Positions 21,682 to 63,118 of a DNA stretch of 64,000 bases are shown one piece after another; the first letter of the stretch is position 1, and every line of letters starts with the position of its first letter. A program made the position numbers and the translations under genes. Under the pieces are notes generated by a model that saw only the letters and a list, made by a program, of their open reading frames with translations, ran no database searches and was not told where the DNA came from. Origin of the DNA: Candidatus Bathyarchaeota archaeon (lineage in GTDB: Archaea > Thermoproteota > Bathyarchaeia > 40CM-2-53-6); NCBI GenBank assembly GCA_963833125.1, contig CAWHWX010000009.1, positions 32,001-96,000 of the forward strand, read 5' to 3'.

Positions 21682-23010
21682 ATGCTGGTTTCTTGTTTGA
21701 TTCAGGGCTTGGATTGGATTCAGAAACGTACTGGGCTTGACCCGGTAGCGAATTCTGAAGCCCTGACTTTCGTGCAGACCTCGTCCTCGACGATGTGTAT
21801 GCAATGCCGTGGGAGCCGGATGCTCTGCGGAAAGGCTTACTGCCCGATCTTGTCAAAAGCAGACCTTCTTGTCAAACACTTGCCGAAACTCTCGAAGGAC
21901 GTGATCGATGGCTCCAGCCCGCCCGGTGCATTCGTAGGTCGAGTTGGTTATCCGAAGGTCTACATTGGTCCTCTGATTCCACCAGAGAAAGGGGACACGC
22001 GGGTTCTCGATACACCAGAACTTTGGATGGGCACCAGCATTCAGGGGATAATTGACTACCGATTCCGTTTGATCCGCGGGAAGTCGCTAGTTGAAGTTCA
22101 CGAGGCGCAGGATCCTGGGAGGTATTTGCTGGATCTTCACGACTTGGCCTTGTCTTCGACTTCTGTTGAAGTGAATGCGAAATTCAAGAAGAAACCTAGA
22201 ATGTCTGTGGTGCTCAGTGAGGAGACGCAACCCTTCGGTCCATCGGCTTTGATACAGAACCTTGAGATTGCTCCCAGCTCGGGAGAGCAGAAACTCGAGG
22301 CCGCGTACTATGACGGCGATTTACTTGCTGCAAATGGGATGATAGAATTATACCGGGACGGGGTTGAGGTTTCACGTATTCAAAAAACGCTTAGCCTCGG
22401 CATGCTTGGTGTTCAAGAGCAGAGGAAGATCGTTCCGACTCGTTGGAGCATAACCGCAGTCGATGACACCCTGTCCAAGCACCTTCTCCAGAAAGTCTAC
22501 CACTACCCAACCCTTGACAAATTTCAGGTCTACAAGTTTGAATACCTAGATAATTGGTACGCCGCGATTTTGTCGCCGCGAAATTGGGCGTTCGAATGGA
22601 TTGAAGCTTGGTTTCCAGGTACAGCTTGGAATGAAACTGGGAGTGTTCCGGCGCTGATGGGCGACCATGAACCTTTCGAAGGGCGAACGACCTACGCCTC
22701 TGTAGGAGGATGCTATTACTCCACTAGGCTTGCGGTGGCTGAAGCGTTGGAGAGGATGGAAAAACAAGCGTCGGCTTTGGTCCTCCGCGAAATCCGGCCC
22801 GGTTACGTTCTTCCTGTAGGCGTCTGGAATGTGCGAGAGAGCGTTCGCGCGGCCCTTAGAACGGCGCCCACCATATTCGACGACTTCCAGCACGCTCTTC
22901 ATTATGCTTGTATGGAGTTCAGGATTAAGCCCGATGTATGGATCAACAATAGCCACTTGATTCGCGAAGAAATCTTTCAGACTCGCCTGAGTCAATACTT
23001 TGGGCTATGA
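21682..23010 (+). CDS. nreA: Nre family archaeal DNA repair protein (true start probably a little downstream)
   Basis: CxxCRG...LCGK..CP, GSSPPG.FVGR.GYPKV, PTRWSITAVD, GGCYY and a C-terminal PIP box QTRLSQYF. Confidence 0.93.
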   Translation: MLVSCLIQGLDWIQKRTGLDPVANSEALTFVQTSSSTMCMQCRGSRMLCGKAYCPILSKADLLVKHLPKLSKDVIDGSSPPGAFVGRVGYPKVYIGPLIPPEKGDTRVLDTPELWMGTSIQGIIDYRFRLIRGKSLVEVHEAQDPGRYLLDLHDLALSSTSVEVNAKFKKKPRMSVVLSEETQPFGPSALIQNLEIAPSSGEQKLEAAYYDGDLLAANGMIELYRDGVEVSRIQKTLSLGMLGVQEQRKIVPTRWSITAVDDTLSKHLLQKVYHYPTLDKFQVYKFEYLDNWYAAILSPRNWAFEWIEAWFPGTAWNETGSVPALMGDHEPFEGRTTYASVGGCYYSTRLAVAEALERMEKQASALVLREIRPGYVLPVGVWNVRESVRAALRTAPTIFDDFQHALHYACMEFRIKPDVWINNSHLIREEIFQTRLSQYFGL

Positions 23011-33721: not shown

Positions 33722-33859
33722 GCCGGGGTAGCCTAGCTAGGTAAGGCGACAGAGTCCCAGCGGATACTTGGGACGTTGAGCCTCGAGATCTGCTAACAGT
33801 TTGGGCCAAGATAGCTGTTGGTCCTCTGGGCCTCGTGGGTTCAAATCCCACCCCCGGCG
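33722..33859 (+). tRNA. tRNA-Ser(CGA) with two introns: 33753..33780 (position 30/31) and 33788..33812 (position 37/38)
   Basis: Acceptor stem GCCGGGG/CCCCGGC with G73, D stem GCCT/AGGC, spliced anticodon arm ACAGC-CTCGAGA-GCTGT, long variable arm, and T arm GTGGG-TTCAAAT-CCCAC. A TATA-like TTATTAT lies at 33689-33695. Confidence 0.88.
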
Positions 33860-46778: not shown

Positions 46779-49088
46779 TTGACAATGAAAGGGATGCCTG
46801 AGAGTAACCGGCATGGCACCAACGGGTATGAAAGCAAAATAGGCGACCCATTTTCAAGTCTGAGACTTTTCGGAACAGTTCAACGCAGACAAAGCAACAT
46901 CCCGATTCAGACCACTCCATTGGTTGACCGCGAGGGAGAATTTGAAGCGTTACGCGATCTAGTTCATGAAAGCAATGTTCGACTCATGACGCTCACCGGT
47001 CCAGGTGGAACCGGTAAAACAAGACTCGCCCTAGAAGTTGCTTCTAACTCAAAGGATGAATTTTCTGATGGCGTCGTATTCGTATCGCTCGCGGCAGTCA
47101 CAGAAGCCAACCTCGTTCCGTCAGCAATAATCTCAACTCTCGGCGTCATGGAGAAAGCTGGAGAACCAATCGAAGATACTCTCATGGATTTCTTTAGAGG
47201 AAAGCAAACCCTCCTGCTTCTCGATAACTTCGAACAGGTAATCGAAGCGGCTCCCTTCGCTGCTCAACTTTTGCATGAATGCCCAGAGCTGAAAATGATC
47301 GTTACAAGCAGAGCACCTCTCCGCGTTCAGGGCGAGTACGAGTTCCCCGTCCTCCCACTAGCCGTACCGGACCTCACCCAGGCTCCAACAGCAAAGGAGT
47401 TAGAACGTTATGCATCCGTAACACTCTTCGTTCAACGTGCACAATCGATCAGATCTGATTTTGCCGTCACCCGCGAAAACGCGAAAGCGTTAGCAGAAAT
47501 TTGCACGAGACTCGACGGACTCCCTCTTGCGTTAGAGCTAGCGGCCGCCCGCACCAGAGTCCTCTCCCTCGAAGACTTGCTCCTTCGACTGCAAAAGAGG
47601 CTAGAACTCTTAACCGACGGACGACGCGACCTCCCTGAGAGACAGCAGACGCTTAGCAATACGATAGCTTGGAGCTACGACCTACTCAGTGAGCCGGATA
47701 AGATACTATTCAGACGACTGTCCGTCTTCGGAGGCGACTTCTCACTTGAAGCTGCCGAAGAGATTTGCATGAAGCAAGAAACTTACACTAAGGACATACT
47801 GGACAGACTATCACGGCTAGTTGAACAGAGCCTACTTCTAAGCGAACATGCAGAAAACGGGCTTCGATTTAGAATGCTGGAAACAATTCGCGAATTCGCA
47901 AATGAGTCACTTGTTTCGAGTGGCGAATCAGTTCGCACGGAGGAACTGTTTGTAGACTACTTCCTCTCATTTGCCGAAGAAGCAGCCTCGAGGTTGATGG
48001 GCCCAAAACAGGCAGGAATTCTGCTTCGGCTCGACCGCGAACATGACAACATTCGAGCAGCTCTTCGTTTGTCGATTGAACATGGGAACGCTGAGCGGAG
48101 CTTGCGTCTCAGCTCTGCTTTATGGAATTTCTGGAATATACGAGGGTATCATACGGAAGGACGAGTGTGGCTCTCGAAAACGCTAGAAAATGCAGGGCCA
48201 ATACATTCTGTGGCGCGGGCAAGGGCGCTCACTGGGGCTGGCGGCTTAGCCAAATGGCAGGACGATTTCTCTACAGCCTCGGCACTCTTGAACGAAGGTC
48301 TAGCTCTATCTAGGGACCTTGGGGATAAGGAAGGGGCCGCGTATGCCTTGAATTATTTGGCCAATGTGGCTGATGACCTTGGGAACTTTGCAGAAGCTCG
48401 TAGGCTGTACGAAGAGAGTTTGTCCCTATTTCGGGAGATTGAGGATAACTGGGGCGTGGCCTTGGTCCTCAATAATTTGGGTGTGGGGGCCAGGTATCAA
48501 GGAGAATATGAGCAAGCAACTAGATTTCACGAGCAAAGCCTCAAACTGTTTACGGAGTTGGGAGATAAACGTCGCGTTGCTCACTCTCTAATTAATCTTG
48601 GATCCGTGTTCGAAAGAACGGGCGAGTATGAAGCGGCACGGGAAATGTTCGACCGAAGCCTCTCGCTGTTTCGGGAGTTGAATGGGAAAGTTGGAATCGC
48701 TGAATCATGCTTTCTATTGGGTACCGTCTCTCGCAAGAAAGGAGATTATGACGAAGGTCGCAAGCAGCTTGCTGAATCACTGATCGTCTCGAGTGATGTC
48801 GGATATCGAGAGATAATTGTCAACTGCCTCGAAGAGTTCGCTGCATTGGATTCCGCTAGCGGACAAGTCAGTCATGCCGCTAGGTTACTCGGTGCGGCCA
48901 GCGCTATGCGAGAAGCCATGCAATTTCCAATTCCTCCGGCTTACCTAGATGATAAGAATCATAACGTAGATTTAGTCCGTTCCTCGCTGGGTGAGGAGCG
49001 ATTTCATGCCGAATGGTTTCTGGGGCGAACCATGACCGTGGAGGAGGCGATCGCCTACGCGTTGGCATCCGAAGGGGCGAATTCATAA
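46779..49088 (+). CDS. STAND (NB-ARC-like) ATPase with winged-helix and TPR repeats
   Basis: Walker A GPGGTGKT, Walker B LLLLDNFE, VTSR, LDGLPLALELAA, WSYDLL, RFRMLETIRE and 5-6 TPRs. Confidence 0.92.
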   Translation: MTMKGMPESNRHGTNGYESKIGDPFSSLRLFGTVQRRQSNIPIQTTPLVDREGEFEALRDLVHESNVRLMTLTGPGGTGKTRLALEVASNSKDEFSDGVVFVSLAAVTEANLVPSAIISTLGVMEKAGEPIEDTLMDFFRGKQTLLLLDNFEQVIEAAPFAAQLLHECPELKMIVTSRAPLRVQGEYEFPVLPLAVPDLTQAPTAKELERYASVTLFVQRAQSIRSDFAVTRENAKALAEICTRLDGLPLALELAAARTRVLSLEDLLLRLQKRLELLTDGRRDLPERQQTLSNTIAWSYDLLSEPDKILFRRLSVFGGDFSLEAAEEICMKQETYTKDILDRLSRLVEQSLLLSEHAENGLRFRMLETIREFANESLVSSGESVRTEELFVDYFLSFAEEAASRLMGPKQAGILLRLDREHDNIRAALRLSIEHGNAERSLRLSSALWNFWNIRGYHTEGRVWLSKTLENAGPIHSVARARALTGAGGLAKWQDDFSTASALLNEGLALSRDLGDKEGAAYALNYLANVADDLGNFAEARRLYEESLSLFREIEDNWGVALVLNNLGVGARYQGEYEQATRFHEQSLKLFTELGDKRRVAHSLINLGSVFERTGEYEAAREMFDRSLSLFRELNGKVGIAESCFLLGTVSRKKGDYDEGRKQLAESLIVSSDVGYREIIVNCLEEFAALDSASGQVSHAARLLGAASAMREAMQFPIPPAYLDDKNHNVDLVRSSLGEERFHAEWFLGRTMTVEEAIAYALASEGANS

Positions 49089-55069: not shown

Positions 55070-57910
55070 TTAATGGTGCAGAAGTTTAGCAACCCTGTTT
55101 GATGTGGCCAGGGCGGCTAGGGTTAGGGTTGAGAGGACGATTGTCGCTGAGCTGATCATCAGTAGAGTTGATGATGCTAGAGCTTCACCAATTGCGAGAG
55201 CGGAAATTCCACCCAACAGGGCGAACGAGAGATATTTCTCCATCGCAGCCAAACTGCGGAACCGTCGCACTCTCGATCGTATCAGGCTGAGTGGTAACCC
55301 GAGGTAGAAGGCGCCGATTAGACTACTTGCAATCAAGCCGGACAGTAAAACTGCTAGTTCTGGGAAGCTGGCTGTTGTGGAGTAAAAGTTCGATGTTAGG
55401 TAGAGGATGCCTACAAGCGGGTAGAGTACAACCTTCATTATCGCTCGTTCCGCTGAATGTGAGGATATGTAGTTCGCCACTCCAGGACTGAAGGAGTAGT
55501 ACCAGGCGTTGAACAGGGCCATGAAGCTTGACCCTGCCTGAGTCTTCATGATTGAGTTGTCGCGGAAGTTGCGGAGGAGCTGAACTTCCGGCGCGACTTG
55601 AGAGCCGTATGTTGCTGTGGCGATCAAGCAGACCGGGGCGCCCGCGGCTGAGGACGTTGTGCTGGTGCTAGTTGTTGCTGGCGTCGTAATCAGAACACCT
55701 ACGTTGGCGCTGTGAATCAACGCACCGCTCGTTCCAGTGACCTGCACTGTAAACGAACCCGTTGATGAGGATGCTGACGCAGTGATCGTAAGGGTTGAAG
55801 TTGCTGGTGTTGCAGTCGGAGTCACCGGTCCAGGAAGACCTACCGAAACTCCAGTAGGGGCTGTGCCAATCCATGAATAGCTCAACGCAACAGCTGAATT
55901 GAATCCGTTAATTGCGCTAACACTAATCGTTGACGTTCCAGTTCCACCTTGAGTAAGCGATACGGTGCCCGGGGCGCCGCCGATTGTGAAGTCTGGCGTT
56001 ACGGTGATGGTTAGCATGAAAGACTGCGAATGAGTTAGGCTGCCGCTTGTGCCAGTGATGGTTATGGTTGACGTTGCAGCTGGAGTTCCTGAGTCAACGC
56101 TAATCGTCGCCGTCGAAGTAATCGTCCCGCCCGCAGGTGGCGTGACAGGGTTGGATGAAAACGACACGTGCACGCCGGAGGGCAAGGAGCCGGGGCTCAG
56201 ATTGACAGGTGAATTGAACGACCCAAGAGATGTCACCATCACGGTTTCATCTGATGAGCTTCCCGCGGCAACGCTGAGAGTTGGTGCGCTGAGTGATAAT
56301 CCGAAATCGGCGCCAGATGTCACGGTAAGTGTAAAACTGGTTGAGTGAGTTGTGGAACCCCCTGTTCCGCTGATGGTAATTGTGCTTGACCCAACCGCGG
56401 CGCTAGGTCCAACGTTAACGGTCAGTGTCGATGCCGCGGAACCTCCTGACGGAATGTTAATCGGGTTTGGAGCGAATGTTGAGAATGTCACGCCGGATGG
56501 AACTGAGCCCGTAATCGACAATGTAACAGAACCCGAGTAGCTAAGAATACTCGTGCCGGTAATAGTGATCATGCCTGAAGCGCCTTGACCTACCGAAATC
56601 GTTCCAGGAGCGGCGCCGATGCTGAAATCGGGTTGAGAAAGACTAAGTTCCGCAATCTTGTTAGCATTAGACTCCGTTATCCAAACATTTCCGGAAGAAT
56701 CAACCACCAAATCGTGCGGGCCGCTTGTCTGGCTCAGAGCCCATTCCGTGAAGGAACCAGTAGTGGTCCCAGTGTTACTGCTCGAAGTCGGCGAAACGGT
56801 ATTCGATGTGGGCGGGAACGGGCCTAGTACGGCGGGCGTAATCGTTGTCTTCGTGCCTGCAAATACTTGTGTGACAGGGAGACCGGGATAGGACACGGTA
56901 CCACCCGTGGAGGGATCTAGCACGGCAACCTTAGCGGCTCCTGAGCCAGCGTGAGCATATTCGGCGGCCCAAGGTTGCTGAGTAAGCGGACTGATGTTGA
57001 TACCCCGTAGATCAGCCCCAGCCGAAGGAACCTGCCAATCCTTGAAAGTGCCGTCCCCGCGTAGGACGCCGATATAGTTGTTAGGGTCACTCGCGCTGTT
57101 TGGGACATCCTGTGTGTACCAAGCTTGCCCCAGCGTGTCGACAGATACGAAGGCTCCCGTTGCGGATCCATGAGACGGAAGTGCCCATGAAGAAAACTGA
57201 TTAGTTCCCCTGTCAAATCGTACAAGGGCGTTAGCCCCGGCGAACCAGACTGTTCCAGGCCCCGCGTAGACACCGTTTGCTACTCCGCCCGCGGCGGCGG
57301 GAAGCGTACCCTCGTAAACATCTGCCGTGGAGATGCTGGGATCGTAAACCAATTCTCCAACAGCATTTCTACCCGGTTCACTGAACCAAGCCCTTTCTTG
57401 TGCTCCAGGCGGTTCAACTGAAATCTGTTCTGGGAAGGAACTTGCAGTTGGAAGAGTATACTCTTTGATGATATTTCCGCTAGGGAAGAGGATGAAGATC
57501 TTGTTTCCATTACCCTCCGCCCCAAAAATCGCAGTTTGACCTGAGACTGTCGCTGCCGCTATACCAAGCGGTTGGGAGCTGGCGGTTGGAATCGCCCATT
57601 CCTGAAAGGTGTTGGTCAAAGGGTTAAAGTGTGCAACGTTATTGCCGGAGGATTCAGCAAACCAACAGCAATTTCCGGCGGGGTCAAGGATGATATTGTA
57701 CGGACCGCTATTTGCTGTAGGTACGGTCCATTCGGTTAATGTCGCGGAGGTTGGTGCGGCATAGGCCGGTGGGGCAAGATTTGCCAATACTGATGCAGAA
57801 GCTGGAGATATGATGACGAGGCAGATTACCGTCAATGCCTTCGCGTAAATTACTTGCATCTTGCTTGCATGACCTGCCCTATTGAAAATTAAGTGCATTA
57901 CTAGAACCAA
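55070..57910 (-). CDS. Surface protein: Vgb-lyase-like propeller, 3 Ig-like repeats and a CFI-box-CTERM domain
   Basis: EWxIPTAxSxP blades; PDFSI/ADFGL/PDFTI modules; CLIATATYGS..APEVQ.LR.FRD...AG..F...FNAWYYSFSP; then TM helices. Confidence 0.88.
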   Translation of the reverse strand: MVLVMHLIFNRAGHASKMQVIYAKALTVICLVIISPASASVLANLAPPAYAAPTSATLTEWTVPTANSGPYNIILDPAGNCCWFAESSGNNVAHFNPLTNTFQEWAIPTASSQPLGIAAATVSGQTAIFGAEGNGNKIFILFPSGNIIKEYTLPTASSFPEQISVEPPGAQERAWFSEPGRNAVGELVYDPSISTADVYEGTLPAAAGGVANGVYAGPGTVWFAGANALVRFDRGTNQFSSWALPSHGSATGAFVSVDTLGQAWYTQDVPNSASDPNNYIGVLRGDGTFKDWQVPSAGADLRGINISPLTQQPWAAEYAHAGSGAAKVAVLDPSTGGTVSYPGLPVTQVFAGTKTTITPAVLGPFPPTSNTVSPTSSSNTGTTTGSFTEWALSQTSGPHDLVVDSSGNVWITESNANKIAELSLSQPDFSIGAAPGTISVGQGASGMITITGTSILSYSGSVTLSITGSVPSGVTFSTFAPNPINIPSGGSAASTLTVNVGPSAAVGSSTITISGTGGSTTHSTSFTLTVTSGADFGLSLSAPTLSVAAGSSSDETVMVTSLGSFNSPVNLSPGSLPSGVHVSFSSNPVTPPAGGTITSTATISVDSGTPAATSTITITGTSGSLTHSQSFMLTITVTPDFTIGGAPGTVSLTQGGTGTSTISVSAINGFNSAVALSYSWIGTAPTGVSVGLPGPVTPTATPATSTLTITASASSSTGSFTVQVTGTSGALIHSANVGVLITTPATTSTSTTSSAAGAPVCLIATATYGSQVAPEVQLLRNFRDNSIMKTQAGSSFMALFNAWYYSFSPGVANYISSHSAERAIMKVVLYPLVGILYLTSNFYSTTASFPELAVLLSGLIASSLIGAFYLGLPLSLIRSRVRRFRSLAAMEKYLSFALLGGISALAIGEALASSTLLMISSATIVLSTLTLAALATSNRVAKLLHH

Positions 57911-58215: not shown

Positions 58216-59100
58216 TTGGATCCTCAATTCTCTGATGGCTTTGTGACTGTTCTGGGCCACAAGCTGTTCTACAAAACCATCGGCGAACCGGAGAACGATA
58301 CGATTCTATGCCTTCATGGCGGTCCTGGGGGAACACATGATTACATGTTGCCGCTCGCCGATTTGGCGCAGTACGGTTACCGAGTGATCTTCTTTGATCA
58401 GATAGGGTGCGGGAAATCAGAATTGCCGAAGAATATCACTCTCTTCACGGTTGAGCGAGCGGTTGAGGAGGTTGAGGGAATGCGCCAAGTTCTGTGGTTG
58501 GGGAAGGTTAACTTGGTTGGATCAAGTTGGGGAGGCATGCTCGCCATAGCGTACGCATTGAAGTATCAAAGACATCTGAAAAGCATGATTACGATAGGTG
58601 GGCTGGCAAGCGTTCCCCTCACAACTGCCGAGATGGAGAGAATGAAAAGGGAACTCCCGATCGAGGTTGTGGAGGTTTTGAATAAGTACGAAAGCGAGGG
58701 AGACTTCGAAAACCATGAATATCAGAAAGCTGTTGAGGTATTCTACCAGCTACATCTTTGCAGGTTACCACAATGGCCCGAAGAATTAGTCCACACCCTT
58801 GAACACGTGAGTCGGCCGGTCTATCACACAATGAATGGACCTAACGAATTCGCAATCATAGGGAATATTCGGTACTGGGACGCTACCAGTCAACTTCACA
58901 AGATTCGAGTCCCAACCCTCGTGACGGGTGGAAGGTACGATGAAGTATCCCCGAAGGTCGCGAGAAGCATCCACAGAGGGATAAAACGCTCCAAACTAGT
59001 CACCTTCCCCAATAGCTCGCACCTACCATTCTGGGAAGAACGAGAGAAGTTCATGGGAGTAGTTCGACGTTTCCTGGATAACGTCAATGAACCCGTCTAA
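58216..59100 (+). CDS. pip: Proline iminopeptidase (tricorn-interacting F1-like)
   Basis: HGGPG, DQIGCGKS, GSSWGG, MNGPNEF, GRYDE and SSH. Confidence 0.93.
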   Translation: MDPQFSDGFVTVLGHKLFYKTIGEPENDTILCLHGGPGGTHDYMLPLADLAQYGYRVIFFDQIGCGKSELPKNITLFTVERAVEEVEGMRQVLWLGKVNLVGSSWGGMLAIAYALKYQRHLKSMITIGGLASVPLTTAEMERMKRELPIEVVEVLNKYESEGDFENHEYQKAVEVFYQLHLCRLPQWPEELVHTLEHVSRPVYHTMNGPNEFAIIGNIRYWDATSQLHKIRVPTLVTGGRYDEVSPKVARSIHRGIKRSKLVTFPNSSHLPFWEEREKFMGVVRRFLDNVNEPV

Positions 59101-59108
59101 CTGAAGGA

Positions 59109-59567
59109 TTGGCATCAAAATTGGCGCTTGACAGTTACAAGAAGAAAAGGAACCTCTCACGCACCCCCGAGCCCGGTCCAAAGATCAAGAAGACTGAGCA
59201 AAATCGGTTCGTGGTGCAGGAACATCGAGCAACTCGTTTGCATTGGGACTTCAGGTTAGAGTTGGATGGAGTGCTGAAGAGCTGGGCTGTTCCAAAGGGG
59301 CCGCCCGAGGAACCCGGCTTGCGAAGATTGGCGGTCGAAGTTGAAGATCACCCCGTTGACTACATCACTTTCGAAGGCACAATCCCTCAAGGCGGATATG
59401 GAGCGGGCACCGTTAAGATTTGGGACAAAGGGAGCTTCAGGCTGAAGATAAGGACGAAAGACATGTACGAATTCTGGCTCAAGGGCAAGCGGTTGAATGG
59501 TAAATATGCCCTGGTTCGGTTCAAAGAAAAAAATTGGTTACTGTTGAAAACGAAAACTGATGATTAA
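59109..59567 (+). CDS. Stand-alone LigD 3'-phosphoesterase (PE)
   Basis: FVVQEHRATRLHWDFRLE, LKSWAVPKGP, EDHPVDY..FEG.IP and YGAG.V.IWD.G. Confidence 0.95.
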   Translation: MASKLALDSYKKKRNLSRTPEPGPKIKKTEQNRFVVQEHRATRLHWDFRLELDGVLKSWAVPKGPPEEPGLRRLAVEVEDHPVDYITFEGTIPQGGYGAGTVKIWDKGSFRLKIRTKDMYEFWLKGKRLNGKYALVRFKEKNWLLLKTKTDD

Positions 59568-60286
59568 CGGATCAACATTTTATTGAAATCAGCTGCTAGG
59601 TTAGCCGCATCACCAGTCTCGTCATGCATGAAGTAGACGAAACAGTTCTCTAGGTCACTTGCGAACTTCTTTAGTTTCTCTGACCATTCCTTCAGGTCAC
59701 TTTTAGAATAGCGTTCATGGCGAAGCCTCGCATAAGTGAAGTTGGCCGTCTTCTCGAATATGGGTTTCATATCTTCGGTATCTGCAATGCATAGGGCAGC
59801 GTTGTATTTCGACAATAGGTTGTTCAATTTGTCACCGAACCAAGAGTTGTGTCGAAACTCGATCGCAATCGAAGCCCAATCAGGTTTCTCTCGGAGAAAT
59901 GTTTCGAGCGTCTCGTAATCCTGTTTCATATACGGTGGTAGCTGTACGAGTACACATCCCAGCTTCGCCTCTACTGGCTTCAACCCTTTCAGAAAGAACT
60001 CAAACTCAGTCTTAGCTCCCTTGAGTTTCTTGAAGTGAGTAATTTTGCGGCTCGCTTTGAAACTGAACCGAAAATCCTGGGGTGTGGAATTGGCCCACTT
60101 CGAGGTCGTTGTTTGCGTCGGCATGTGGTAGAAGCTTGAATTTACCTCCACCGAATTCAACTTCTTAGCGTAAGCCTCTAACATCTCATTCGACTTAGTG
60201 GTTTCAGGGTAGAAGACTCCCTTCCAGCTGGCATAACTGAACCCCGACACGCCGACCCAAAACCGCGCCATCATATTCACACTCAC
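59564..60286 (-). CDS. DUF72 family protein
   Basis: GVSGFSY..WKG.FYP, VEVNSSFY, FKASRKITH, QLPP, EFRH.SW and YARLR. Confidence 0.95.
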   Translation of the reverse strand: MSVNMMARFWVGVSGFSYASWKGVFYPETTKSNEMLEAYAKKLNSVEVNSSFYHMPTQTTTSKWANSTPQDFRFSFKASRKITHFKKLKGAKTEFEFFLKGLKPVEAKLGCVLVQLPPYMKQDYETLETFLREKPDWASIAIEFRHNSWFGDKLNNLLSKYNAALCIADTEDMKPIFEKTANFTYARLRHERYSKSDLKEWSEKLKKFASDLENCFVYFMHDETGDAANLAADFNKMLIR

Positions 60287-60302
60287 TGGGATCCGGCTGG
60301 AT

Positions 60303-61259
60303 TTACAATATACACTCTGATGGCGTTTTGTCGAAGCGAAACCTCTCGAACCTAGGTAGCCGGAGCTTGCGATCCCTCGTCATGTTCATGTAACCAACTT
60401 CAACCACTAACCGAGGTTTCACCCATCTGATAGGAGCTGGAGCTTTGACCTCGCCCGGGACTGTTTTAGTTTTCGTTTGCAGAGGCCTCAATAGTTTCAT
60501 TACGCTAAGAATCGTGGCGTCTGTAAATCCCGTCCCCACGTTTCCTAAATGAGTGATCTTTCCATTTCTTTCGTACGCTGCCAATACGAGTGCGCCGAAG
60601 GTTGATGATCGTGAACCCCCGCCTTCCGTGTAACCCACGACGACGCAATCAAGCGTCTTAACCTGTTTCAGCTTGAGCCAGTCTTCGCTTCTGGTGCCGA
60701 TCTGGTAGGGGGAGTCAGCCTTCTTGGCCATGGCTCCTTCGAACCCGAGCTTTAATGCGTTTTTGAAGTAGGATTTTCCTTGCGAAGGAACATACTGGCT
60801 CAGTAGCATGTGAGGCCCGTTGGCGATTATCTTTCCCAGTTTTTGCCTACGATCTGTCAGGGGGCTATTTACGAGGTCTCGGCCGTTCAAATGTAAAAGG
60901 TCGAAGGCGATGTACGTGGTAGGCATGTTTCTGGAGAGCCTTCTAATCTGGATGGGATCGTTCGCTCCGAAACGGAACTGGAGTAGTTCAAAACTAGGTA
61001 ATCCCTTTTCGAGCACAACGATTTCCCCATCGAGAATAGCGCTGTTCGTCTTGACGTTGCTGGCAATTGTTTCGAGTTCGGGGTATGATTTCGTGACGGT
61101 TCTCAAATTGCGGTTTTGAAGCTCCACTTTACGGTCTTTGAAGTAGGCAATGCAGCGCATGCCGTCCCATTTCGGTTCGAAAACGTGTTGCTCAGAATCA
61201 AACGGGTCTGCTGTTTGCGCCAGCATTGGGCGAATGTTGCGTTCGTCCAGTAACGTCAA
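60303..61259 (-). CDS. ligD: NHEJ ATP-dependent DNA ligase (LigD ligase domain)
   Basis: PMLA, EPKWDGMR, LDGEIV, FDLL, EGAMAK, WLKLK, VGTGF and LRLPRF..FR.DK. Confidence 0.95.
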   Translation of the reverse strand: MTLLDERNIRPMLAQTADPFDSEQHVFEPKWDGMRCIAYFKDRKVELQNRNLRTVTKSYPELETIASNVKTNSAILDGEIVVLEKGLPSFELLQFRFGANDPIQIRRLSRNMPTTYIAFDLLHLNGRDLVNSPLTDRRQKLGKIIANGPHMLLSQYVPSQGKSYFKNALKLGFEGAMAKKADSPYQIGTRSEDWLKLKQVKTLDCVVVGYTEGGGSRSSTFGALVLAAYERNGKITHLGNVGTGFTDATILSVMKLLRPLQTKTKTVPGEVKAPAPIRWVKPRLVVEVGYMNMTRDRKLRLPRFERFRFDKTPSECIL

Positions 61260-62035
61260 CCTTTAGCACTGACTTTGATGCTGGCCTTCAGGGCTTCCAT
61301 CAAATCCTGCGTGGCCTCAATCTCGGGAACCTTGGGCTCAAAGACTTCTTCCTTCCCCTTCATTTTGGCCTCAACTAAGTCCGTTAACGCTTCCTGGTAA
61401 CGGTCCTTGTACTCCTTCAAGTTGAACGGTTTTTTCATAATTCGAATGAGTTGTCCTGCGAGTTCCAATTCCTCTGGCGAGACCTCGACCGGTTTTCTGA
61501 GTTCTTCAAAGTCGCTCGGGTCCCGGACTTCGTCCGCGTAATGCATCGTCTCCATTAGGATCGAATTTCCGTAGGGCCGAATTGCAACCAAATGTTCACG
61601 TTCATGCATGACGACCCTGCCTACAGCAACTTTGCCATTTGCCTGAAGTGCTTCGAGTAGGAGGAAGTATGGTTTCTTTGAATCCTCCGTGGGGACAAGG
61701 AAGTAGCCTTTGTCGAAATAAATCGAATCGAGCTTATCTAAGTCCACAAAGCGGAGTATCTCAATTGCTTTACCGGATTTGATTTCGACTGTCTCTAGGT
61801 CTTTGTTTGAGAGTGCGATGTACTTGCCTTTCTCTACCTCGTACCCTCTTAGAATACTGCTCCATGGTACTTCCTTCTTGTCCTTCGAACAGACTCGCTT
61901 GAACTGTATGGGGCTCTTGTCTCTGGGGCAGAGTAGACGCAAGCCGACTTTGTGCTCAGACACCGCGCCGAATCCCTTGACGGGGATGCTGACGAGGCCG
62001 AATGTTATGGATCCACTCCAAGTAGCTCTTGGCAA
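61256..62035 (-). CDS. ku: NHEJ DNA end-binding protein Ku
   Basis: MPRATWSGSITFGLVSIPVK, RGYE, YFDKGYFL.P, MHYADEVR, YKDRY and DLMEALKAS. Confidence 0.96.
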   Translation of the reverse strand: MPRATWSGSITFGLVSIPVKGFGAVSEHKVGLRLLCPRDKSPIQFKRVCSKDKKEVPWSSILRGYEVEKGKYIALSNKDLETVEIKSGKAIEILRFVDLDKLDSIYFDKGYFLVPTEDSKKPYFLLLEALQANGKVAVGRVVMHEREHLVAIRPYGNSILMETMHYADEVRDPSDFEELRKPVEVSPEELELAGQLIRIMKKPFNLKEYKDRYQEALTDLVEAKMKGKEEVFEPKVPEIEATQDLMEALKASIKVSAKG

Positions 62036-62160
62036 GGTTTGACCGAGAGGATGGGGGATGCGGGTCTACTTCAACAGTGCTCTTCCAATGCTACCCATTT
62101 TAGCTAATTCTTGCCAAACTCACCATGAACCAACGTATGGTTTAACCCGCAGACGGTGCA

Positions 62161-63118
62161 ATGTTCAATGGAAATAGAACCGTTGAGTTCACCCTCAAAT
62201 TCCCGTGGGAAGGTTTCTTGGCCGACAAAACACAACTCGTCCGAGTCAACGGTCGCAACCTTAAGCTCACCAACTTGGAAAAGGTCCTGTGGCCCGACGA
62301 GAAGATCACCAAGGCTGAGGTCATAAAATACTACGCGGATTTGAACGAGTACATAATCGCATTCCTCAAAGACCGGCCAATAATGACGCGGCGCTATCCA
62401 CAGGGAATCACTCAAGAATACTTTGTTCAGAAACATTTTCCGCATGTTCCTGAATGGGTGGAATTATTCTCATTCAAGTCAGAACACTATGTCCTATGCA
62501 ACGACCTTCCCACACTCATCTGGCTAGGTAACTTGGCGGCAATTGAGATCAACCACATGCTCGCCAAATCACCAAACGTAACCAGACATGATCTGGTTCT
62601 GATAGACTTGGATCCGCATTTGCCAGCCAATTTCGACGATGCGAGAGTGGTTGCTCGTGGGAGTGGCGACGGTGCTTGAGAGGTTGGAGTTAGAATTTCT
62701 ACTAAAGACCTCGGGAGCGGACGGTATACACTTCCTGATTCCAATCGAACGTCGTTACAGTGTTGAGAAGATCAGAAAGTTCGTGTATGTGATCGGAAAG
62801 CTGATTGAGAAAGCCAACCCGAATTTGGCTACGGTGTCAACTAGAGCAGATCGGAAGAAGGGGCACGTATACGTAGATTTCCTTCAAAACGGCCTAGAGA
62901 AAACGATTACCGCTCCGCTAAGCATAAGGGCACTGCCAGGAGCCCCCGTCTCATACCCTCTAACAGTCAAGCAGTTGGACGACCGTAAACTAAATCCACA
63001 AAATTTCAGCGTCCGGAAAGCTCCCCGAAAATCGCCGGCGCTCCGAAGTATGCTTCACCTCAGCCGGACCTCCCAAGATCTAGGCCCGGTCTTCGCCAAA
63101 CTGGGCATTGAGACCTAG
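62161..63118 (+). CDS. NHEJ primase-polymerase (LigD Pol domain); +1 frameshift in GGG at 62659-62661; start probably TTG 62218
   Basis: LTNLEKVLWP, TK.E.I.YY, RRYPQGI, QKH, DLDP, KTSG..GIH, VYVDFLQN and AP.S.RA..GAPVS.PL. Confidence 0.93.

Follow-up and report, generated by a model that had tools for sequence, protein, structure and literature searches.

A split archaeal set for non-homologous end joining (NHEJ), with Ku, a polymerase (Pol), a ligase (Lig) and a phosphoesterase (PE), was reportedly described by Bartlett and colleagues in 2013 from Methanocella paludicola. In later papers, Ku together with a ligase was recorded in 10 of 243 archaeal genomes (PMC7719229), all four components were counted in 97 archaeal species, with the genes dispersed (10.1101/2023.09.30.560322), 19 archaeal Ku sequences were given, with no Bathyarchaeia among the terms searched (PMC11936186), and archaeal NHEJ was named solely from M. 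paludicola (PMC12993045). A complete NHEJ complex gained by the ancestor of the Nitrososphaerales was attributed to bacterial transfer by Abby et al. (2020; PMC7554672). A search of main texts found no paper documenting NHEJ genes in Bathyarchaeia or Bathyarchaeota. The cluster described here comes from a soil member of the Bathyarchaeia and lies in a window of 64,000 nt, the whole stretch of DNA analyzed (GenBank assembly GCA_963833125.1, contig CAWHWX010000009.1, positions 32,001–96,000, forward strand); all coordinates are positions within this window.

The locus is very probably a chromosomal, vertically maintained NHEJ cluster of the Ku/LigD type, split so that each activity has its own gene. 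Genes were called from the listing of open reading frames (ORFs) and from Pfam and TIGRFAM profile scans of the window proteins (E-values in brackets). Ku, ligase, Pol and PE were recovered as separate genes at 59109–63118 with strong family scores, as an initial annotation made from the sequence alone had reported. Ku (61256–62035, minus strand; TIGR02772, Ku_bact, 1.5e-85; PF02735, 3.5e-46) was a 259-aa protein consisting of the core and a short C-terminus. It reached 286.8 bits against a cut-off of 150, with the full profile (1–259) aligned, and matched solved bacterial Ku chains at 3e-47 to 1.5e-45, residues 1–258 aligning with one of them. The protein stops where the bacterial Ku profile stops, in agreement with the proposed minimal Ku devoid of a basic C-terminal extension, and was the sole Ku in the host genome.

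The ligase (60303–61259, minus strand, 318 aa; TIGR02779, 6.5e-84) was a stand-alone ATP-dependent NHEJ ligase of the LigD ligase-domain type. Its score of 281.7 bits exceeded the cut-off (227.75), and it matched the ligase domain of Mycobacterium tuberculosis LigD (1vs0) at 1.2e-46, with the KWDG adenylation motif (KxDG) aligned. PE (59109–59567, plus strand, 152 aa; PF13298, LigD_N, 1.6e-40; TIGR02777, 3e-56) was a stand-alone LigD-type 3′-phosphoesterase, with 189.5 bits against a cut-off of 144, and aligned best among solved proteins with 3p43 (1e-45) and 3p4h (7e-45). Residues R49, E51, D80, H81 and Y85 were invariant in 26 PE genes of these clusters, and H39, H45 and D47 nearly so; these include residues of the His/Asp/Arg/Tyr active-site type of PE. 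Pol, an AEP primase-polymerase of the LigD type, was read in two parts on the plus strand. The N-terminal part (62161–62679; PF21686 positions 1–123, 3.7e-27) holds the DLDP metal-binding motif (DxD site), and the C-terminal part, in the +1 frame (62639–63118; PF21686 positions 125–246, 3.6e-29), holds the KTSGADGIH and YVDFLQN motifs. Pairwise comparison with the congener G016 gave ratios of non-synonymous to synonymous substitution (dN/dS) of 0.025–0.106 for all six gene pieces, with 0.025 for Ku, 0.034 for PE, 0.106 for Lig, 0.042 and 0.058 for the N- and C-terminal halves of Pol, and 0.036 for a fifth gene of the cluster.

This fifth gene, overlooked in the initial annotation, lies between PE and the ligase (59564–60286, minus strand) and encodes a 240-aa TIM-barrel protein of the DUF72 (YecE/UPF0759) family (PF01904, 8.3e-62; 209.5 bits against a cut-off of 25.3). 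The Ku and ligase genes share 4 nt (61256–61259), and DUF72 starts on the same strand after a 16-bp gap downstream of the ligase. The transcription unit of Ku would most likely comprise Ku, Lig and DUF72, with DUF72 as its last gene. The locus is organized into three units: PE alone, Ku-Lig-DUF72, and Pol, which diverges from Ku across a 125-bp spacer (62036–62160). Three units had been recognized earlier, with the Ku unit incomplete by its third gene, and the convergence ascribed to PE is real, with DUF72 rather than the ligase as its partner (their ends overlap at 59564–59567). PE starts 8 bp past the end of a proline iminopeptidase gene (pip; 58216–59100, plus strand; TIGR01250, 8.3e-100), and an M29-like peptidase (PF02073, 1.4e-08) is encoded on the minus strand from 63217, beyond Pol. 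The ORFs flanking the locus contained no integrase, transposase or repeat marks, as noted before.

The Ku/Pol spacer is a putative promoter region, in which alignment with four congeners revealed three conserved blocks, GTCTACTTCAAC.GT, TTAGCTAAT and GATGGTTTAACC. The last of these sits about 25–35 nt upstream of the Pol ATG, a TATA-box-like spacing for a leaderless mRNA, and the three blocks could be a shared regulatory site.

Both halves of Pol fit PF21686 with their motifs present, yet the gene is interrupted by a one-base insertion in a T/GGG run at 62658–62661 (plus strand). The window reads CGTGGGAG there, whereas three congeners (G016, G015 and G022) read CG-CGGCG or CG-AGGAG in the alignment, with a one-column gap relative to the window and Pol as a single open frame. 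The intact Pol of G016 matched a solved protein titled ‘NHEJ Polymerase’ (5dmu) at 1.5e-44, and the alignment matched DLDP, the SG..G.H block and the D of YVDFLQN. Contigs covering 62658/62659 from runs X1, X3 and X6 (two samples) were all one base shorter; they represent relatives 92–95% identical to the window rather than its own strain. Among 58 ORFs of the syntenic G016 region that matched the window at >55% identity, eight were frame-split in the window (at about 17510, 20588, 28855, 30830, 41947, 51966, 53633 and 62660). Two of the eight break regions could not be aligned; in all six that could, Pol included, the window carried a single-base insertion, located in short runs. The reverse comparison returned five frame-split rows in G016, two of which were both strands of one place. 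With 14% of genes affected and by insertions only, the pattern points to errors in the consensus and not to decay.

The split in Pol is therefore very likely a one-base assembly artefact, as the initial annotation had suspected, and the organism, judged from these sequences, probably has all four activities. In the competing explanation, a real +1 frameshift would have inactivated Pol in this strain, leaving a cluster that works without its dedicated polymerase, by ligation-only joining or with another polymerase stepping in, or that is starting to decay. The extra base is present in the assembly, the genome has no second LigD-type Pol, and the near-identical run X2 gave no contig over 62593–62726; this last point also weighs against reading the split as an artefact. 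We nevertheless regard inactivation as improbable, given that the extra base is missing from relatives and from related populations, that all six alignable breaks among the eight frame-split genes point to consensus error, and that both Pol halves have dN/dS values of 0.04–0.06, similar to those of their intact neighbors. Programmed +1 frameshifting was discarded as well, since none of the relatives shows the shift. One-base insertions seem to be a systematic feature of this assembly, and they are frequent enough that apparent pseudogenes in it need caution. Separately, matches to Lig, Pol or DUF72 fell in two pieces in the operons L062 (G190), L065 (G223) and L066 (G138), which may represent frameshifts or assembly errors.

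The host genome is a metagenome-assembled genome (MAG) of 3.07 Mb in 39 contigs, 87.8% complete and with an estimated contamination of 7%. The nearest named Ku loci carried the titles Bathyarchaeia or Bathyarchaeota (L015, 90% identical; L025; L019). The archaeal DNA-repair-linked protein Nre, an archaea-specific family, is encoded 36 kb from the cluster (21682–23010, plus strand; Nre_N, 8.4e-96; Nre_C, 2.7e-37), and a 138-nt tRNA at 33722–33859 (plus strand; Rfam, 42 bits), undetected by ARAGORN, is probably an intron-containing archaeal tRNA. These markers and the titles of the nearest records bear out the earlier assignment of the host to the TACK archaea (Thermoproteota). The window was collinear with a 1.57-Mb contig of G016 at 74–88% nucleotide identity, and the gene order there was identical (pip-PE-DUF72-Lig-Ku-Pol-M29). 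GC content was flat across the locus and its junctions.

That the locus might be bacterial DNA, misbinned or chimerically joined to an archaeal contig, deserved attention given the contamination estimate, the mainly bacterial distribution of Ku/LigD genes and the bacterial titles of some near-identical records. These records (L016, L017 and L018, titled Acidiferrales, ‘bacterium’ and Dormiibacterota) contain Ku-Lig-Pol loci 66–87% identical to that of the window and of the same architecture, and their titles are probably wrong labels or the product of mixed bins. A bacterial chimera is nonetheless exceedingly unlikely, and was rejected because collinearity with the long contig of G016 extends over the locus and its two flanks, GC content is flat at the junctions and archaeal markers are present. 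Moreover, 25 of the 43 other genomes in the family have this locus type, its neighbors in other genera are aEF-1beta and Cdc48, and the nearest Ku representative outside the clade was only 45% identical. A library of 1.84 billion representatives held a single sequence >50% identical to the window Ku, followed by this one.

Of the 301 Bathyarchaeia genomes sampled, the host (G000) among them, 73 had Ku, as did 30 of the 151 of high quality. It was concentrated in three families, namely f1, to which the window belongs (25/43 other genomes), f17 (14/48) and f22 (29/71). Among 60 relatives, 13 of the 36 from the window’s own family had Ku, compared with none of the 24 from other families of the order. 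A LigD-type Pol scored above the cut-off in 80 of the 301 genomes and, from a comparison of the two listings, accompanied Ku in 68 of the 73 Ku genomes; in the remaining five, Ku was at a contig edge (G009, G030, G035 and G297) or on a short contig (G295). In a sample of 401 genomes across the phylum, with class membership inferred from the family codes common to the 301-genome survey, Ku was present in 12: G000, nine other Bathyarchaeia and, among the 341 genomes from other classes, two members of family f41.

Bathyarchaeia are hence the hot spot of Ku within TACK, and in this lineage such a locus is nothing unusual. The rarity implied by the initial annotation is not supported by these frequencies (73/301 in the class, 25/43 in the window’s own family); commonness in the lineage was a circumstance that the annotation itself had named as speaking against its claim. 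Nor is a full set new in TACK after the Nitrososphaerales complex (PMC7554672), or rare among archaea given the 97 species of the preprint (10.1101/2023.09.30.560322). About one-quarter of the sampled species-level Bathyarchaeia genomes have the clustered set, making this abundant class of sediments and soils a natural place for studies of archaeal end joining, with slow growth, dormancy and a single genome copy as ecological angles.

Two types of locus were distinguished within the class. In type A, that of the window (genera g1–g4 of family f1), Pol diverges from Ku-Lig. DUF72 followed Lig in all five loci of genus g1, and PE adjoined in four of them, the contig of the fifth ending earlier. 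The 12 loci of g2–g4 contained only the divergent Pol and Ku-Lig; next came aEF-1beta, an unknown gene and Cdc48. PE was located elsewhere in the genome in all five g2 and g3 genomes checked. Type B is a co-directional Pol-Ku-Lig-PE-DUF72 operon found in f17, f22, f32, f27, f2, f41 and genus g5 of f1, with PE in 27 and DUF72 in 26 of the 28 loci examined. Ku proteins of the two types were only 34–40% identical, and each type formed a clade with support of 100, the two being far apart in the best trees. A single Bathyarchaeia Ku clade was not rejected by the approximately unbiased (AU) test (p 0.297), so two independent acquisitions are not claimed. Of the 20 Ku-tree clusters looked up, four could be named, three of them as organisms: one near type A belonged to Archaeoglobaceae/Halobacteriota, one within type B to Methanoperedens, and the third to Stahlbacteria. 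With so few names, the identification of a donor lineage was dropped.

In two congeners without Ku (G018 and G013), DNA searches and flank comparison placed the left and right flanks next to each other, about 7.7 kb including the cluster being gone with no gene remnants; pip, which is not conserved in congeners, was unusable as an anchor. The difference is an indel, readable equally well as gain or as loss. Another congener (L038; G009:C99) had a third, unrelated type of Ku, 30% identical, in a 351-aa frame on a 5-kb contig where no Pol was found; it could stem from contamination or have been acquired separately. The Solirubrobacterales loci L022–L024 showed a PE-Lig-Pol run followed by two tandem Ku paralogues, with DUF72 absent within the fetched flanks (up to ∼6 kb).

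What seems to be new here is the link between DUF72 and the NHEJ genes, for which no paper was found under the DUF72 family names in a search of main texts; among the papers listed for YecE, the name stood for a phage insertion site or for some unrelated gene or term. A tree of 52 DUF72 sequences grouped the 24 copies linked to type B loci together (SH-aLRT 98), with 22 unlinked paralogues outside this clade, and the main groupings within it (f22, f17, f41 and g5) resembled those of the Ku tree. The four copies linked to type A loci formed a clade of their own, with an unresolved position in the tree. Across 27 linked copies, the invariant polar residues included E47, K77, Q115, E143 and R187, with H84 and R145 nearly invariant (numbering of the window protein). 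Another short clade of DUF72, at L095–L097 and L091, was found elsewhere in four genomes (G237, G217, G186 and G062), three of which have Ku; G237 has an operon without DUF72 and one copy of this short clade elsewhere.

A metagenome scan was seeded with the 27 linked DUF72 sequences. In the best 80 of 588 relatives (35–49% identity), a sample that is biased toward relatives of the linked copies and so bears on the existence of a linked subfamily rather than on its general frequency, Ku/LigD genes flanked DUF72 in 36 loci, within 500 nt in 29. Where the flanks extended 3 kb or more in both directions (16 loci), the corresponding numbers were nine and six. Most linked loci encoded a fused PE-Lig-Pol LigD in the bacterial style, and their gene orders numbered at least five; one of these loci (L138), verified with Pfam, had a fused 922-aa LigD and Ku, with DUF72 divergent. 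These sequences show that a DUF72 subfamily linked to Ku/LigD exists across the two domains.

At the level of sequence, the window protein matched the DUF72 protein 1vpq at 1.8e-20. Its AlphaFold model (pLDDT 92) superposed on 1vpq with a Z of 27.6 and a root-mean-square deviation of 2.0 over 230 residues. The next structural matches formed a plateau of xylose-isomerase-like TIM barrels at Z 12–14.6, including endonuclease IV (Endo IV; 13.6 for 5zhz, and 12.4 and 12.3, the latter for 1qtw), the apurinic/apyrimidinic (AP) endonuclease of African swine fever virus (12.9) and UvdE (2j6v, 12.0). The first match outside DUF72 in Foldseek was an AP endonuclease of family 2 (3ngf; E 6e-6, TM 0.53). 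A search of the protein atlas for relatives, with the family itself left out, gave no usable match. The predicted fold is thus compatible with a DNA-repair nuclease, and not diagnostic of one.

By analogy with the characterized bacterial and Methanocella systems, a Ku homodimer would thread onto both ends of a double-strand break and recruit the other proteins. Pol, the AEP primase-polymerase, would fill gaps, probably with ribonucleotides, PE would remove 3′ ribonucleotides and 3′ phosphates, and the ATP-dependent ligase would close the nick. To this, DUF72, a TIM barrel with a metal site and a fold of the xylose-isomerase/Endo IV/UvdE class, would most likely add an end-cleaning or lesion-incising step, as suggested by its gene neighborhood and modeled fold. 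We tentatively propose, as an idea that falls a little short of probable, that DUF72 is an unrecognized Ku/LigD accessory, a metal-dependent end cleaner resembling Endo IV and UvdE, in archaea and in bacterial-style loci, and that Bathyarchaeia, rather than Methanocella, are the main home of archaeal NHEJ. In that case DUF72 may supply the end-processing step missing from the ‘minimal’ model of prokaryotic NHEJ.

Several observations weigh against this proposal. DUF72 was present in 264 of the 301 Bathyarchaeia genomes, with several paralogues each (three copies in G000), and was absent from the 12 Ku loci of g2–g4 and from four named Halobacteriales/Solirubrobacterales Ku loci. A profile search of solved chains with DUF72 returned DUF72 entries alone and no nuclease, and the Z scores of Endo IV and UvdE were tied with those of sugar epimerases (13–14), so that the fold does not tell nucleases from sugar isomerases. 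All of this suits DUF72 being a bystander, a housekeeping or stress gene kept near by common regulation or chance synteny, with the four classical activities sufficient. Because the gene is nearly universal and multi-copy, its presence or phyletic correlation with Ku is uninformative and only adjacency informs. Adjacency survives at least six gene orders and both the split archaeal and the fused LigD architectures, and the linked copies stand in their own clade with main groupings resembling the Ku tree. In addition, an in silico study reports DUF72 near PolB2 operons, enriched beside this damage-response polymerase operon, with a fold related to UvdE (PMC11791011). We therefore consider the bystander explanation rather doubtful. 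As an NHEJ accessory or otherwise, the recurrent neighbor is a testable lead for a large family with solved structures and no known function.

Two other genes of the window are mentioned for completeness. A 946-aa Thr/Ser-rich protein (55070–57910, minus strand) has a Vgb-lyase/NHL beta-propeller domain and, by eye, hydrophobic stretches near its C-terminus; its homologues adjoin stand-alone PE genes of other genera (L099–L102). A 769-aa NB-ARC/TPR ATPase of the STAND type is encoded at 46779–49088 (plus strand).

Compared with M. paludicola, the window has the same arrangement of one gene per activity. The best solved match of the G016 Pol, 5dmu, is from M. paludicola, and the window PE also matches 5dmp (4.5e-34). 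The two differ in that the window host belongs to another phylum (Thermoproteota, class Bathyarchaeia) and that its cluster includes DUF72. The Ku-LigD systems of bacteria such as M. tuberculosis, Pseudomonas aeruginosa and Bacillus subtilis comprise the same four domain families. The window ligase resembles the M. tuberculosis domain 1vs0, Ku resembles the solved bacterial Ku proteins, and PE resembles 2lj6 and 3n9b, the PE domain of P. aeruginosa LigD. In the window, however, the domains are separate genes rather than one LigD polypeptide, Ku is devoid of the basic C-terminal extension, and the genes form three transcription units.

Like the window host, the Nitrososphaerales are a TACK lineage with all four components (Ku, Lig, Pol and PE), but they belong to another class (PMC7554672). 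The window genes lie within 4 kb, whereas archaeal NHEJ genes are described as dispersed over the genome in the preprint (10.1101/2023.09.30.560322). Finally, the DUF72 protein belongs to the same family as the solved YecE/UPF0759 proteins TM1631 (1vpq) and EF0366 (1vpy, 1ztv), whose function is unknown. While these solved proteins have no assigned partner, the linked copies represent a distinct clade, or clades, traveling with Ku/LigD.

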